NCBI GenBank assembly: GCA_042218075.1
Contig: JBDGRK010000005.1
Coordinates: forward strand, 68,716-132,715
Direction of reading: 5' to 3'
DNA length: 64,000 nucleotides
From: Candidatus Nanohaloarchaea archaeon
Lineage (GTDB): Archaea; Nanohalarchaeota; Nanosalinia; Nanosalinales; Nanosalinaceae
The notes beneath the pieces were generated by a model that saw only the letters and a program-made list of their open reading frames with translations, made no database searches and was not told the origin of the DNA. Position 1 is the first letter of the stretch. Every line of letters starts with the position of its first letter. This document shows positions 3,177 to 61,376 of this stretch, piece after piece. A program made the position numbers and the translations under genes.

Positions 3177-3265
3177 TGTATCACCTTTCAATTAGGAAGT
3201 GCAGAAAGAGCGAATTCTTTTCATGGAGGCCCGCCCTTTCAACACTCCGGGTCGATGGGCCCCCT

Positions 3266-3355
3266 TCAAACGACTAAAATAATCAGCAGGATAGCGATAC
3301 CGCTGACCAGATTCACTGATCCCGGTTCAAAGTTTTCGGCCAGCGTTTCTAACAT
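3266..3355 (-). CDS. Putative Ile/Leu/Val-rich leader peptide (MLETLAENFEPGSVNLVSGIAILLIILVV)
   Basis: ATG about 21 nt after a TTTAAAT TATA-like box; 9 of the last 10 codons are I/L/V; followed by alternative GC-rich helices overlapping the downstream SD. Confidence 0.6.
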   Translation of the reverse strand: MLETLAENFEPGSVNLVSGIAILLIILVV

Positions 3356-3424
3356 ATTTGATGCATCCACAGCAAACATTTAAATAAGGTTTGACAGTAT
3401 TTTATGATCCCGAAATAGTAATAG

Positions 3425-4471: not shown

Positions 4472-4517
4472 TTTGCGAAGCACCTCTTGGAGAATAATCT
4501 AAGAGAAAGCTCGATTT

Positions 4518-4640
4518 CTACCCAATAATACCGATAATCGAAATGATGGAAATAGATCCAGAAACTTCAGAAAAATCAGATAGAGTTGGGACTCCCGAAA
4601 CTTTACTCAGATTCAGTAGACCGAAGGATAAAGCGTCCAC
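4518..4640 (-). CDS. Putative Ile-rich leader peptide of ilvA (MDALSFGLLNLSKVSGVPTLSDFSEVSGSISIISIIGIIG)
   Basis: GTG start 22 nt after TTTATAAT (leaderless position); 7 Ile in the last 11 codons and none before; stop 46 nt upstream of the ilvA ATG. Confidence 0.68.
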   Translation of the reverse strand: MDALSFGLLNLSKVSGVPTLSDFSEVSGSISIISIIGIIG

Positions 4641-4701
4641 CCTTCATTGACGAACTCACAGAATTATAAAGAGAAATAAGAATTTAAAAAGGGAAGGGAG
4701 A

Positions 4702-57821: not shown

Positions 57822-58208
57822 ATGCTGCTCTACCTTGTTATAATCCTACTGGCGCTCCCATTCCTAGACCTCTATATCCTGATCCAGGCAGCGGACTTTA
57901 TCGGAATTGTCCCGACACTGGGCCTGATACTTGCTACAGGTTTGATCGGTGCAGCGATCCTGAAGCGGGAGATGGAAAGGGTGGGCAGAAAACTTTTCAC
58001 ATCGGTAACTGCCAGGGAGATTTCAAGAAACATGCTGGAAGGTTTTCTTCTACTGGTGGGCGGAATAATGCTTCTGACTCCTGGCTTTTTAACAGATTTT
58101 ACCGGTTTTTTGCTGCTTGTGAGGCCTCTCAGGGTTAAGCTGATGCTGAGGATCGAGGAAAAACTGGAGAACAGCTCTAACGTCAGTGTGCAGGTCGGAA
58201 CTATTTAG
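57822..58208 (+). CDS. fxsA: FxsA family membrane protein
   Basis: GGIMLLTPGFLTDFTG motif. Confidence 0.85.
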   Translation: MLLYLVIILLALPFLDLYILIQAADFIGIVPTLGLILATGLIGAAILKREMERVGRKLFTSVTAREISRNMLEGFLLLVGGIMLLTPGFLTDFTGFLLLVRPLRVKLMLRIEEKLENSSNVSVQVGTI

Positions 58209-58899
58209 CTCGATAAGAAATTATGAATGAAGCGGCGAAGACCGCCAGGCCAAGCTCTGAGGGAACGCTAAATCCGTATAGCGACATTGCTATCAGCAAG
58301 AGTACAATAGAGGAACCCTTTCTTATGTAATCGAGCTCCAGGCCTGAGATATTAATTCTGGCCGCGAGATACAGTGCAGCAAGCGAAATAATCGAAGTCA
58401 ATAGCGCCGGCATTACGTATTCAAAACTGAACTGGAGAGAGCCCGGGTTCTTTACTGATAGCATCAGTCCGGTCACAAGTATGGCCGGAACGGAGAGTTT
58501 ATCCGCCAGCCTGAGCTCTGACAATTTCATTGCTATCGAAATCAGCGCAAGCCCGGCCGCGTATCTAAATCTCTGGATGTGGAACAGCTGCTCGTAGATC
58601 GGCGCCACAAGAGACACTATCAGGGCTCCCAGTAGAAGGTATGGAGCTGCCTGCTTCACCATATATATTGCTTCTTCAGTGTCTCTTGAACAGGAGTAAA
58701 GAACTGCGAGCGTTCCAGCACCTGTGAAAACTGTAAGTGAAATCGCTACAACATCGGAGAAAGTCTCCATCGCTCCAGTGACGAGTAAAGTGGCGAAAAC
58801 TCCATCGATAAGAGGGAGGCAGAGTATAAATATCAGTCTCCTCGTATCGTGATCCGGCAAGTGCCGTGAAGCGCCGTCCCTGTACTCCTCCAGAACCAT
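58201..58899 (-). CDS. Multi-pass membrane protein (DUF5794-like, possible transporter)
   Basis: LPLIDGVFATL motif, about 8 TM helices; ATG 58899. Confidence 0.7.
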   Translation of the reverse strand: MVLEEYRDGASRHLPDHDTRRLIFILCLPLIDGVFATLLVTGAMETFSDVVAISLTVFTGAGTLAVLYSCSRDTEEAIYMVKQAAPYLLLGALIVSLVAPIYEQLFHIQRFRYAAGLALISIAMKLSELRLADKLSVPAILVTGLMLSVKNPGSLQFSFEYVMPALLTSIISLAALYLAARINISGLELDYIRKGSSIVLLLIAMSLYGFSVPSELGLAVFAASFIISYRAK

Positions 58900-58941
58900 G
58901 CAGAAAACCTCATACGAGAACGGCTCTGGAACCAAGCAACT

Positions 58942-59049
58942 CTATTTCCAGTTAAACTTGGTTCCTGTAAACTTCAGAAAGAACTTCTTGGATACTTCAG
59001 CAGCTGTCGGGATTGATACAGTAACCGAATTCAGGACAGCTGCTCGCAT
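58942..59049 (-). CDS. Putative Lys/Phe-rich leader peptide (MRAAVLNSVTVSIPTAAEVSKKFFLKFTGTKFNWK)
   Basis: ATG about 23 nt after a TTAAATA TATA-like box; 5 Lys and 4 Phe in the last 15 codons; stop lies inside a 9-bp hairpin. Confidence 0.55.
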   Translation of the reverse strand: MRAAVLNSVTVSIPTAAEVSKKFFLKFTGTKFNWK

Positions 59050-59072
59050 ATTAATTTTCATTTAGCTAAAAT

Positions 59073-60038
59073 CTATTTAAAGTCTTTCTCGAGAAAAATT
59101 GGATCGCCTTCATCAAGAACCTTCTCACCGTCAAACCATACAGTGGGATCTTTACAGATAGCATCCCAGTGTAGATCACACGGGTTTCTTTCCTTCCTAC
59201 CTTCCTGAACGTAACTAGTGTTGTCCCCGAAGGCTATATGCACAGTGCCAAGCACCTTCTCATCCTGCAACACATTTCCTATCAAAGTTGCTTCAGGATT
59301 TGTTCCAAAACCAAATTCTGCAATCTTTTTTGAGCACGGCATTTGATTGAATTTCTGCTCCAGATTGGATTTCTTCTCATTTTCGTTCTCTATAGATACG
59401 ACTACACCATCTTCTATCTCCACTTTCCTAGCTTCCGGAGAGAAAGGGAAATGATCTAAAAATAGAGTGCCACTTATTCCCTCAGGATAACCGTTTGGTT
59501 CCCCATCAGGCAGATTGGAGCATTTACCCGGCTTCTTTATCATACCCTCGCTTTGATGATATGTTTCAATATCCACCCTGAAGCTGAGATCTGTTCCCGA
59601 AGGAGTTTCTATCCTTACTTTTTCTGTAACCTCCAGCAGTTCATAGACTTTTCGAGTAATCCTTGAAATTTCCCCGTAATCAGCCTGGAGAGATGAATTC
59701 CATATTTTTTTGGATATTTTCGGCATTGATGCCATTCTGGCCCCAGCCTCACAGGCTTTACCTGTTGCATCTGTATGGGTTAAAGACTTCAGAGTTGGAG
59801 CTATAATTACGTCAACCTCTCTCATCCTTTCCGCAACTCTCTCCGGAGGTTCCTCGCCTTGATTTCCCAGCTCCTCGTACTCCAGCAGCTCGTACTCAGC
59901 ACCGTTATCTTCCAGTACTTCAAGTAGCGCGTCTATCAAATCCTGGTCGTTCCCATCGTTCAGGACAAGAACTTCTTCTTCCGGCTGTATCTTCAGGCAC
60001 TGGTCAACTACAGTTTCGGCTCCCTCTATGAGAGACAT
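59073..60038 (-). CDS. Aminopeptidase (M29/AmpT-like)
   Basis: NLPDGE, IAEFGFGTNP, DEKVLGTVHIAFG, HWD. Confidence 0.85.
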   Translation of the reverse strand: MSLIEGAETVVDQCLKIQPEEEVLVLNDGNDQDLIDALLEVLEDNGAEYELLEYEELGNQGEEPPERVAERMREVDVIIAPTLKSLTHTDATGKACEAGARMASMPKISKKIWNSSLQADYGEISRITRKVYELLEVTEKVRIETPSGTDLSFRVDIETYHQSEGMIKKPGKCSNLPDGEPNGYPEGISGTLFLDHFPFSPEARKVEIEDGVVVSIENENEKKSNLEQKFNQMPCSKKIAEFGFGTNPEATLIGNVLQDEKVLGTVHIAFGDNTSYVQEGRKERNPCDLHWDAICKDPTVWFDGEKVLDEGDPIFLEKDFK

Positions 60039-60069
60039 AAATACTGTTGAAGAAAACAGACTTTAATTC

Positions 60070-60267
60070 CTATCCCAGGGAAAAAGTTGCGCCTCGACCC
60101 TTCGTGTCGAAATCAAGCTTCCCCTCTCTGGCCAGCCATCCGATAGCCATGCAAACCTTGGAGCGAGGAGCATCAACATTTTTGTCAATCTGTCTCAGAG
60201 ATGTCTCCCCCTCTTCATCCAGAAACCTCCAAACCTCTCCCGCGGTCTCGCCTATCTCATCGTACAT
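60070..60267 (-). CDS. Small winged-helix protein (DUF2582-like)
   Basis: IGETAGEVWRFL...MAIGWLAREGKL. Confidence 0.82.
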   Translation of the reverse strand: MYDEIGETAGEVWRFLDEEGETSLRQIDKNVDAPRSKVCMAIGWLAREGKLDFDTKGRGATFSLG

Positions 60268-60425
60268 AAACCTTCCTTGGGGAATAATAACGCAGAGCTG
60301 TTTAAAAAACTAGCTAAAGCCTAGAAAACTGATCAATTTGTACTAACTCTCTATTCGATAAAAATTCAAAATATATTAAAGTAAGATCGATCCTTGAATA
60401 ATTGTACTTAAGCTGCAACTTTGAA

Positions 60426-60686
60426 GCCTCGGTGGCTCAGCTTGGCTAGAGCGGTCCCCTCGTAAGGTTACGCTCTTCGCGAAACTCCTTCTGGAGTTTC
60501 TGTGAACGCACAAAATCGCCTCCAGCGATTTTGGAGTACATCGCAACAAGCCATGCGCGTTGCGCATCGCTTCTGGATTCTTCAGGACTCGAGGCGGCAG
60601 CCGAGAGTGGAACCCGGTTGAACCAGAAGTGGAAGGGCTACCTCTTAGGTAGGGACAGATCCCGGGTTCAAATCCCGGCCGGGGCT
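60426..60686 (+). tRNA. tRNA-Thr(CGU) with a 186-nt intron
   Basis: Acceptor GCCTCGG/CCGGGGC, U73, D-stem GCTC/GAGC, anticodon stem GTCCC/GGGAC with CT-CGT-A, T-arm CCGGG-TTCAAAT-CCCGG. Confidence 0.92.
60465..60650 (+). other. tRNA intron at 37/38 (register ambiguous up to 40/41)
   Basis: Removal restores a canonical 7-nt anticodon loop; the intron contains several perfect hairpins. Confidence 0.85.
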
Positions 60687-60824
60687 TACCAAGGTTAATT
60701 TGGGAAGTCCCAAGCGTCCAAATAAGCACCGGTTACCGGCCGGGGGCTTAGCTTTGGCTTTTTCACCGCTTTTAGAGCCTGAAGTCTTAGAATTTTAATT
60801 TGAAACTCTGAGGATTTGAACCTG

Positions 60825-61376
60825 TCAACTACTTTTTATGCTGATTAAAATTGGAGAGCAATTCAAGGTATCTCTCAGATTTTCGATAGAATCCATAAAC
60901 CTTGATTTTGGAATCTGTATCTCTCGTCCAGTCCAGGAATCATTCACAGTAAATTTGCCGTTTTGATAATCACTCAAAACCACCCAATGTGCAAAATGTG
61001 TATACATATCCAAATTCCATTTATCAAGTAAAACTATAGCGAAACCTGTTTCAACAGATTCTATGTAATTATCTGCTGATAATATTTCATGTTTAGGTTC
61101 AATGTTATTCTCCAGAGTTTCTGAAAGTTTTTGATATTTCCAGACAAGATAATCTGATTCTATGAAAACATTGACACTATGCTCCTTCATTAGTTCACTA
61201 ATCAAGTAAGGCTCGTAGCACTCTCTGTCAAATCTAAATGACCTCTCCATCAACTCAAGTTCTTTGTCCTTGTCAAACTCAAAATCTTCATCGTAGTAAG
61301 ATTTTATCATTCCGTAGCAATTCATGAAACAACCGAAAGGCGTAGCCTGTTCTAATGTATTTAATTCGTTTTCCAT
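60825..61376 (-). CDS. C39-like cysteine peptidase
   Basis: EQATPFGC (Q..C), HWVVL, VNDSW. Confidence 0.65.
   Translation of the reverse strand: MENELNTLEQATPFGCFMNCYGMIKSYYDEDFEFDKDKELELMERSFRFDRECYEPYLISELMKEHSVNVFIESDYLVWKYQKLSETLENNIEPKHEILSADNYIESVETGFAIVLLDKWNLDMYTHFAHWVVLSDYQNGKFTVNDSWTGREIQIPKSRFMDSIENLRDTLNCSPILISIKSS

Follow-up and report, generated by a model that had tools for sequence, protein, structure and literature searches.

A conserved leader with a short upstream reading frame and overlapping hairpins precedes the DUF5794 membrane-protein gene of Nanohaloarchaeota

The window, that is the whole stretch of DNA analysed here, comprises 64,000 nucleotides (nt) of contig JBDGRK010000005.1 from Candidatus Nanohaloarchaea archaeon (assembly GCA_042218075.1, a genome of 1.10 Mb in 40 contigs). 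Towards its end, on the minus strand, the gene of a membrane protein of the DUF5794 family is preceded by a short upstream open reading frame (uORF) encoding a Lys- and Phe-rich peptide, and by two helices that claim the same four bases. This raises the question whether such an arrangement is a regulatory element or a fortuitous meeting of a small ORF with inverted repeats and, in the first case, how it could act on the downstream gene. A prediction made previously from the letters of the window, without database searches (hereafter, the original prediction), had described the ORF and both helices and had proposed an amino acid-sensing switch. Comparison with related genomes leads us to consider the element as very probably a conserved, translation-linked cis-regulatory leader of DUF5794. 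Its parts recur together upstream of the same gene, its helices covary, its reading frame is fixed relative to one of the helices, it occurs once per genome and the four shared bases carry a large part of the stability of the helix that hides the start codon.

The downstream gene, announced by the original prediction as that of an uncharacterised membrane protein, belongs to DUF5794 (Pfam PF19107, E 2.3e-20, 73.5 bits for a gathering cut-off of 25), and all 24 aligned orthologues match the same family. Its true start is the ATG at 58899, where the orthologues begin with M/V-V-L-E/D, and not the TTG at 58935 of the program-made ORF list. It is this authentic start codon that the second helix covers. 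The leader ahead of it is made of a TATA-like box, the uORF and three hairpins, called P0, P1 (helix 1) and P2 (helix 2) in their order along the transcript (Table 1). The ORF, the helix around its stop and the helix over the AUG were all recovered as the original prediction had described them; it mentioned neither P0, nor the TATA-like box, nor a Shine-Dalgarno (SD)-like word, GAGGU, at 58911-58907. This word, 7 nt before the ATG of the gene, lies in the loop of P2 together with a U-rich spacer. The box is separated from the uORF ATG by 24 nt; an alternative in-frame ATG at 59061, which gives the 39-amino acid (aa) version of the ORF list, is only 20 nt from the box. P0 begins 5 nt past the uORF AUG with a basal stem of 10 base pairs (AGCAGCUGUC / GACAGCUGCU), the stop of the uORF falls inside the P1 loop, and three of the 12 pairs of P2 are G-U. 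The 168-nt leader folds at -52.9 kcal/mol, to be compared with -42.8 ± 3.9 kcal/mol for 200 dinucleotide shuffles (z = -2.62; 3 of the 200 fold as well). In the minimum-energy fold, the shared bases are split between the two helices, P1 having seven pairs and P2 running from CC onward.

The P2 loop also contains an ATG, at 58913, that opens a minus-strand ORF of 26 codons (58913-58833) overlapping the DUF5794 start out of frame. None was seen in the alignments of the relatives, and it is probably fortuitous.

Table 1. Features of the DUF5794 locus, in positions of the window
Feature	Positions	Strand	Remarks
TATA-like box	59074..59081	-	TTTAAATA; first T 32 nt ahead of the A of ATG 59049
uORF	58942..59049	-	35 codons and TAG (58944-58942); product MRAAVLNSVTVSIPTAAEVSKKFFLKFTGTKFNWK; probably leaderless
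P0 hairpin	58999..59044	-	5' half of the uORF; in minimum-energy and centroid folds
Spacer	58966..58998	-	mostly unpaired; repeated AAGUU words; encodes the K/F-rich middle of the peptide
P1 (helix 1)	58928..58965	-	GGAACCAAG (58965-58957) / CUUGGUUCC (58936-58928); 9 perfect pairs
Shared bases	58928..58931	-	UUCC; claimed by both P1 and P2
P2 (helix 2)	58888..58931	-	UUCCAGAGCCGU (58931-58920) / AUGGUUCUGGAG (58899-58888); 12 pairs
DUF5794 membrane-protein gene	58201..58899	-	232 aa from ATG 58899; PF19107
M29-family aminopeptidase gene	59073..60038	-	PF02073, E 1.6e-08; directly upstream of the leader
FxsA gene	57822-58208		converges on the DUF5794 gene from the far side

A DUF5794 orthologue is present in 26 of the 41 related genomes searched, and also in public sequences labelled Nanohaloarchaea, Nanosalina, Nanosalinarum, Nanohalobium and Nanohalalkaliarchaeum. 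Two sets of leaders were obtained: 25 from orthologue loci of the related genomes (L018, whose start could not be placed, being excluded, and L026 and L030 being one locus) and 38 from loci found in public genomes with a covariance model, R1, built on P1 and P2. Pooled, they amount to 61 leaders, of which 43 are distinct. The public genomes matched by R1 include those of Candidatus Nanosalina sp. VS9-1, of strain M3_22 and of a Nanohalobium MAG. The same layout precedes the orthologue in more than 20 related nanohaloarchaeal genera. All 25 orthologue leaders have a TATA-like box followed at about 25 nt by an ATG, an ORF of 31 to 41 codons, a hairpin that encloses the stop and a helix over the start site; in the 38 model-found loci, a comparable layout comes with an ORF of 29 to 41 codons. 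The conservation of uORF and helices, which the original prediction had made its own touchstone, is thus complete in both sets and is accompanied by compensatory changes. All 43 distinct leaders possess an ORF of 29-41 codons with an invariant ATG; the other two frames across the span of the uORF are open in only 4 and 2 of the 25 orthologue leaders. When octamers are scored against a general TATA consensus, 36 of the 43 leaders have a match that begins 28-36 nt ahead of the uORF ATG.

In the genome of the window, R1 matches a single time (E 6e-16), the runner-up being at E 0.24. It matches exactly once per genome in 25 of the 41 relatives, each time at the coordinates of the DUF5794 orthologue. 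The motif is thus not genome-wide, and the idea of a genome-wide system, put forward in the original prediction, is unsupported. The branched-chain amino acid leaders to which it had likened this one, 55 kb away, have sequences unrelated to the DUF5794 leader, as judged by eye and from one orthologue comparison. Furthermore, no R1 match was found ahead of the DUF5794 paralogues that lack the leader (L027-L029, L049, L052, L072, L075). No Rfam 15 family reaches its gathering score over the whole window, and none appears at E up to 1 over 58800-60900; a tblastn search with the uORF peptide of the window matched only its own locus.

Among the 26 genomes bearing an orthologue, the only one without an R1 match, G022, belongs to a divergent clade (L018, L063, L065 and L069). 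The uORF is kept there, and on visual reading the 5' arm of P2 appears to pair with the SD word rather than with the AUG. In the same clade, the codon found at the expected start, after an SD-like GAGGTG or AAGGTG, is ATG, CTG or ATA according to the member, and the use of near-cognate starts is possible.

Do the helices themselves show selection for pairing? For P1, this can be read from a MAFFT alignment of 24 sequences (A3) that was not fitted to any structure. In A3, 77% of the P1 cells are paired, a proportion that falls to 51% when the partner is slid by one column, and 28 cells show changes on both sides, compared with 9.0 ± 3.3 after shuffling (none of 500 shuffles reached 28). In rows aligned to the model, the P1 pair types include AU 14 / GC 14 / GU 10 and AU 17 / GC 15. 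P2 varies less: 91.7% of its cells are paired in A3, and its 5' arm varies nearly only between A and G opposite U. The 43 rows aligned to the model, a few of which are weak or on the opposite strand, give 90.5% of paired cells for P2 and 85.4% overall, with 61 double-change cells compared with 17.0 after shuffling; being fitted to the model, this alignment is biased toward structure. Eight P2 pairs out of eight are formed in 35 of the 43 leaders. Compensatory changes also occur where the start of the gene is itself altered, for example CCAGAGTC with GACTCTGG in L058, or CCGG with GGTTCCGG in L017 and L042, and likewise in L043 and L010. As in leaders of the ermC/cat type, a helix sequesters the ribosome-binding region, through the AUG in most leaders and apparently through the SD in the L018/L063 clade; the SD-like word is present in 41 of the 43. 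As for P0, an equivalent hairpin exists in nearly all leaders, with a stem sequence that differs by genus, and its segment folds better than shuffles (mean z -1.66, below 0 in 42 of the 43 and below -1 in 31). In 27 of the 43, pairing begins at nt 1-3, so that the 5' AUG is at the foot of the hairpin, and the word GUUUCUG is conserved in its loop in many leaders.

The mechanically important point is the sharing of four bases by P1 and P2. Where the window has UUCC (58931-58928), most of its relatives have CCAG or CCGG, and an 8-nt P1 extended so as to include these bases forms at least seven pairs in 35 of the 43 leaders. In A3, column 72 takes part in both helices: it covaries with its partner in P1 (UA 10, CG 6 and UG 3) and is also paired in P2 (AU 15, GU 8 and GC 1). 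The weight of these bases, whose sharing the original prediction had pointed out, is considerable: P2 alone has a median energy of -16.4 kcal/mol, which becomes -6.9 kcal/mol when its first four nt are removed (about 10 kcal/mol contributed by the shared bases), and the probability that the start region is unpaired then rises from 0.09 to 0.45.

The uORF is in register with this structure. The P1 5' arm begins on codon position 2 in 33 of 41 leaders, when about one third is expected, and the stop falls either in the P1 loop (31 of 43) or in the P1 3' arm (12 of 43), at 3-17 nt from the 5' arm of P2 (median 8; at most 12 in 40 of 43). Together with the invariant ATG, this fixed frame and this stop position point to selection for a ribosome that moves in one frame to one place. 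A read-through or fusion product with DUF5794 was considered and rejected, as the distances between the stop and the ATG of the gene (33, 39, 42, 43, 46, 47, 49, 55 and others) span all three frames. Constraint on the peptide is weak. In 14 close pairs, the ratio of nonsynonymous to synonymous divergence (pN/pS) is 0.33-2.1 in the uORF and 0.08-0.38 in DUF5794. Synonymous divergence is much lower in the uORF than in the adjacent gene (0.19 versus 0.66, 0.05 versus 0.71 and 0.13 versus 0.45), so that most of the constraint is on the RNA. By these sequence comparisons, selection acts mainly on the RNA and on an open, fixed reading frame.

DUF5794 genes are also found in Halobacteria, and the comparison with haloarchaeal leaders that the original prediction had suggested gave a mixed outcome. 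In the nine haloarchaeal loci analysed (L076-L084, L085-L087 being left out), a TATA-like word always lies about 25 nt before the ATG of a uORF, which has 63-75 codons and is located about 200-230 nt upstream of DUF5794; its stop is 3-6 nt before the main ATG in all nine. A conserved GGCC...GGCC hairpin is present near the end of these uORFs. These genomes having 59-68% G+C and another frame being also open in four of the nine loci, the openness of the uORF means little, and the argument comes from the fixed positions of its start and stop. A probably leaderless uORF is therefore found on both sides, but no sequence relation can be detected: R1 has no match in 12 haloarchaeal loci, and hhalign gives a probability of 0.2 for the nanohaloarchaeal and haloarchaeal uORF peptides. 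As far as sequences can tell, Nanohaloarchaeota and Halobacteria share the DUF5794-uORF arrangement and not its sequence.

The searches made on the protein did not assign it a function. An AlphaFold2 model of DUF5794 is all helical (mean predicted local distance difference test 83) and has no Foldseek match in the PDB at E up to 0.001. The wide VIA search gave a best Z of 11.7 with a designed helical protein and 7.5 with HrtB, a range that is common for helical bundles, and Atlas returned only DUF5794 clusters plus one sub-threshold TerC row (TM-score 0.55 by query). In Pfam scans of the 24 orthologues at E up to 10, only DUF5794 recurs with consistency: HlyIII appears in 8 of the 24 with a best E of 0.12, and neither TerC nor LysE is matched. 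No literature on DUF5794 was found. The proposal of the original prediction that the protein imports Lys or aromatic amino acids receives nothing from these fold, profile and literature searches.

How could the leader work? We infer the transcription start, the translation of the uORF, the direction of the effect and the signal from the anatomy described above. Our preferred reading is that ribosome traffic on a leaderless uORF toggles P1 and P2 and thereby gates the initiation of DUF5794; we hold it tentatively, as somewhat nearer to doubt than to acceptance. Transcription would start at or next to ATG 59049 and yield a leaderless mRNA, on which ribosomes would load at the 5' AUG, at the foot of P0. 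A ribosome would read the approximately 35 codons of the uORF and stop inside P1, the stop codon preceding the P2 5' arm by 8 nt (median). P2 would close the start codon and the first codons of DUF5794, leaving the SD-like word in its loop, and the strength of P2 would be decided by the competition of P1 and P2 for the four bases. When the last part of the uORF is free of ribosomes, or when a ribosome has paused on the P1 5' arm, P2 would form in full and close the start. Counted from the first base of the stop codon, a ribosome that has this codon in its A site should extend about 12-13 nt downstream; it would cover the P1 3' arm, as well as one or more of the first bases of P2 in 40 of the 43 leaders. 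By withholding the shared bases, such a terminating ribosome would weaken P2 and allow a fresh ribosome to start at the SD-AUG. The output of DUF5794 would then track the rate of uORF initiation, set by P0, and uORF completion; candidate signals are the stability of P0, tRNA supply, a ligand or a protein. Partition functions computed on the whole leader under ribosome masks give a mean AUG accessibility of 0.30 for the free leader, 0.23 when a ribosome masks the P1 5' arm and 0.38 when it is terminating.

Several observations weigh against this preferred reading. The mean shift in accessibility is small, and in the own genus of the window the AUG has an accessibility of 0.00-0.02 in all three ribosome states. 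In this genus, the uORF stop is 12-15 nt before P2, perhaps too far for a terminating ribosome to reach the helix. In Haloferax, a restart of the same ribosome is described as abolished at about 22 nt (PMC10666635); since the uORF stop of nanohaloarchaeal leaders is 27-57 nt from the DUF5794 ATG, such reinitiation is unlikely here, and a fresh, SD-dependent start would be needed. In none of the nanohaloarchaeal leaders do stop and start overlap or come as near as about 10-20 nt, as they do in the Haloferax type of termination-reinitiation (PMC10666635). P0, located at the 5' AUG, should hinder leaderless initiation, and translation of the uORF may be rare. Finally, the opposite sign, with uORF translation closing P2, fits the same anatomy.

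Control at the level of transcription was also considered, in the form of a bacterial-type intrinsic terminator, and rejected, as no U run follows P2. No hairpin followed by a U run was found in the leader: the 3' arm of P2 is the coding start of the gene and the U-rich stretch is within the P2 loop. Archaeal RNA polymerase, besides, terminates differently from the bacterial one.

Other readings assign the decisive role to the codons, to the RNA or to the peptide. The Lys/Phe sensing of the original prediction would take the form of a scarcity of charged tRNA-Phe or tRNA-Lys that holds up ribosomes in the last, K/F-rich third of the uORF and alters the P1/P2 balance. The uORF peptides are indeed enriched in both residues (F 10.2% and K 8.2%, versus 3.9% and 5.8% in the long ORFs of the window, with a median of three F and three K in the last 18 residues); the dipeptide KF occurs in 33 of the 43, and Phe is kept through synonymous change at one conserved column (TTC 9, TTT 8). 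The mask of an elongating ribosome slightly lowers AUG accessibility, as given above, and the lineage may use leader peptides, since an Ile-rich small ORF (sORF) recurs before the gene of a PALP enzyme at both close orthologous loci. However, no run of F or K exceeds two in any of the 43 peptides (FF in 10, KK in one; the longest run of any residue is three Ala), more distant members (L015, L021, L022) have only one or two F and one or two K, and the AAGUU repeats may be selected as RNA, the synonymous sites of the uORF being constrained. Nothing, moreover, connects DUF5794 with amino-acid transport. Ribosomes stalled on the P1 5' arm would leave the shared bases to P2 and so shut the gene off, which would suit an exporter or a dispensable consumer better than the importer that had been imagined. 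The enrichment is real, but neither tandem codons nor a terminating helix 2 go with it, and we regard this form of control as unlikely. The case for a sensor made of RNA, in which hairpins and unpaired words would constitute a riboswitch, a thermo- or salt-sensor or a protein site acting on P2, draws on the covarying stems, the conserved unpaired words, the stable P0 with its GUUUCUG loop, and the contrast in pN/pS with the adjacent gene, synonymous sites being equally constrained. The ORF would be open only because any 5' AUG gets translated and because the ribosome needs to be released before the gene. Such a sensor has no need of an ATG invariant in 43 of 43 leaders or of a frame fixed to P1 in 33 of 41; there is no candidate ligand, and Rfam has no match even at E up to 1. 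We consider it rather unlikely.

The peptide could also act by itself. A C-terminal K-F-x-W/F-N/K motif, either unaided or jointly with a small molecule located in the exit tunnel, might delay termination and hold P2 open, in the manner of TnaC and SpeFL, which hold bacterial ribosomes on the stop codon. The peptides have the length of the tunnel (29-41 aa), they are basic and aromatic (D+E 4.5% versus 18.4% in the long ORFs), their stop adjoins P2, and their C-terminal third is the best conserved (G 32/41, K 31/43, F 25/41, W 24 plus F 6 of 40). Two residues before the end, the replacement of W by F (TGG 24, TTT 6) takes two base changes. Yet the peptide is barely more constrained than its synonymous sites, part of its conservation is set by the P1 arm (GGN-RCC), the final residues are diverse (WK, WN, FN, NF, KL, WR, TK, WG, FW, IR, RS), and no archaeal arrest peptide was found in the literature searched. 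The arrest peptide, offered by the original prediction as its alternative, is accordingly very unlikely in our view. A micropeptide of the membrane interface that works with or on DUF5794, the hairpins tuning a two-gene operon, would explain why the uORF is always beside this gene, why a small ORF precedes the haloarchaeal DUF5794 genes as well, and why the composition is basic and aromatic, unlike that of the acidic cytoplasmic proteins of halophiles. It agrees poorly with a pN/pS near 1 in several close pairs, with a mean column identity of 34% in the peptide alignment, with the lack of a charge-free hydrophobic segment and with the unrelatedness of nanohaloarchaeal and haloarchaeal peptides. 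We judge this reading quite unlikely. A complex predicted for the uORF peptide and DUF5794, in a run made without controls, has a score of 0.00, from which no verdict is drawn for or against.

These elements can be joined in a broader proposal, which we find rather unlikely as a whole. The leader would be the first archaeal leader-peptide ribosome sensor, a leaderless Phe/Lys-rich uORF reading the supply of aminoacyl-tRNA, or a small molecule bound jointly with the nascent peptide, and transmitting it to DUF5794 translation via the four-base toggle. The role of DUF5794 would be that of a channel or exporter serving homeostasis, of a possibly LysE/TerC-like type; its association with a leaderless uORF would be old or mobile enough to be present in both Nanohaloarchaeota and Halobacteria; and the Ile-rich sORF of the PALP locus would be a second member of a wider archaeal leader-peptide repertoire, unnoticed until now.

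This second locus is at the other end of the window. The PALP-enzyme gene (4483-3425, minus strand) is found in only 4 of the 41 genomes. Its upstream region (4484-4701) contains a TATA-like box and then two overlapping small ORFs, one of 14 aa from an ATG and one of 40 aa from a GTG, which ends with SISIISIIGIIG, six of its last 12 residues being Ile. Endings of the same Ile-rich kind precede the orthologous gene in both close relatives that have it (L097, L098). It is probably one of the branched-chain amino acid leaders of the original prediction. Further along the same strand, before a 616-aa ORF (3191-1341), the region 3192-3424 has a 39-codon ORF right after a TATA-like word; it ends with IAILLIILVV and is followed by G+C-rich inverted repeats before the next ATG. 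It could encode a leader peptide or a small membrane protein. Leader-peptide-like sORFs may be a theme of this lineage, but they do not constitute one shared motif.

The surroundings of the DUF5794 leader call for some remarks. The TAG stop of the M29 aminopeptidase gene overlaps the TATA-like box of the leader, and an M29 gene is the immediate upstream neighbour in 12 of the 26 orthologue loci, so this neighbour is not fixed. An antisense gene was also envisaged in the leader, as a 55-aa ORF is open on the plus strand (58898-59065), and was dismissed: it has neither promoter nor SD logic, and the opposite-strand matches of the covariance model are weak echoes (E 0.005-0.5). Beyond the aminopeptidase gene, on the plus strand (about 60428-60700), a tRNA-like stretch seems to be interrupted by an intron of about 190 nt, with an acceptor and D-arm-like 5' part from about 60428 and a T-arm, GGGTTCAAATCCCGG, at about 60662. 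ARAGORN finds no tRNA in the window, and this stretch is reported neither by ARAGORN nor by Rfam. Locus L019 has a comparable interrupted tRNA-like stretch ahead of its leader.

Cis-acting RNA control is well mapped in bacteria and sparse in archaea. In the open full-text literature, which leaves subscription journals outside, no characterised archaeal switch based on a leader peptide or a uORF was found, nor anything on RNA regulation in Nanohaloarchaeota. The DUF5794 leader bears the marks of a real regulator in genomes of about 1 Mb that keep little regulation. It offers a compact and testable model of how translation of a leaderless mRNA could gate a downstream archaeal cistron, and a handle on a membrane-protein family common to nanohaloarchaea and haloarchaea; its covariance model can be used to find more copies in hypersaline metagenomes.

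Among known systems, the trp, phe, his and ilv attenuators and the ilvB RNA motif of Corynebacterium, described as a translated uORF (PMC10272879), resemble the DUF5794 leader in that the regulated gene is preceded by a conserved motif consisting of a uORF and overlapping helices. Unlike them, the DUF5794 leader has neither terminator and U run nor tandem regulatory codons, and its P2 hides the AUG. In mycobacteria, leaderless polycysteine sORFs are described as attenuators in which runs of Cys codons sense cysteine (10.1101/834739). There, a leaderless short first cistron controls the genes behind it, as would be the case here; the DUF5794 leader differs in that it is archaeal, has three hairpins and has F or K runs of at most two. 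With TnaC and SpeFL, whose leader peptides have 24-35 aa, it shares a peptide of comparable length with aromatic and basic residues and the possibility of a ribosome held at the stop with release of the downstream gene; these bacterial systems involve Rho-dependent termination and strongly conserved peptides, in which they differ from what is seen of the DUF5794 leader.

In archaea, uORFs have been reported from ribosome profiling (PMC7261190, PMC10117724), and translational coupling by termination-reinitiation is described in Haloferax volcanii (PMC6728339, PMC10666635). What both would have in common is that expression of the second cistron requires completion of the first by a ribosome. In Halobacteria, the DUF5794 loci agree with this scheme, their stop-start spacing of 3-6 nt being the geometry for which coupling is described as working in Haloferax (PMC10666635). 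In nanohaloarchaeal leaders, with their gap of 27-57 nt, coupling would instead go through the unmasking of a structure and not through a restart of the same ribosome.

Another parallel is with translational attenuation, known in bacteria from leaders such as those of ermC/cat, secM-secA and mifM-yidC2. As in the ermC/cat type, the DUF5794 leader has a short uORF, a hairpin that hides the ribosome-binding region and overlapping pairings that would depend on the position of the ribosome. It differs in being archaeal, in its probably leaderless uORF, in hiding mostly the AUG while the SD is in the loop, and in an overlap of 4 nt. It has no known inducer or arrest motif, and the weak constraint on its peptide argues against a sequence-specific arrest in the uORF. 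The class of mechanism is thus known from bacteria; what is new here is a probable archaeal member with a probably leaderless uORF, three hairpins and a proposed four-base toggle, attached to one gene family.

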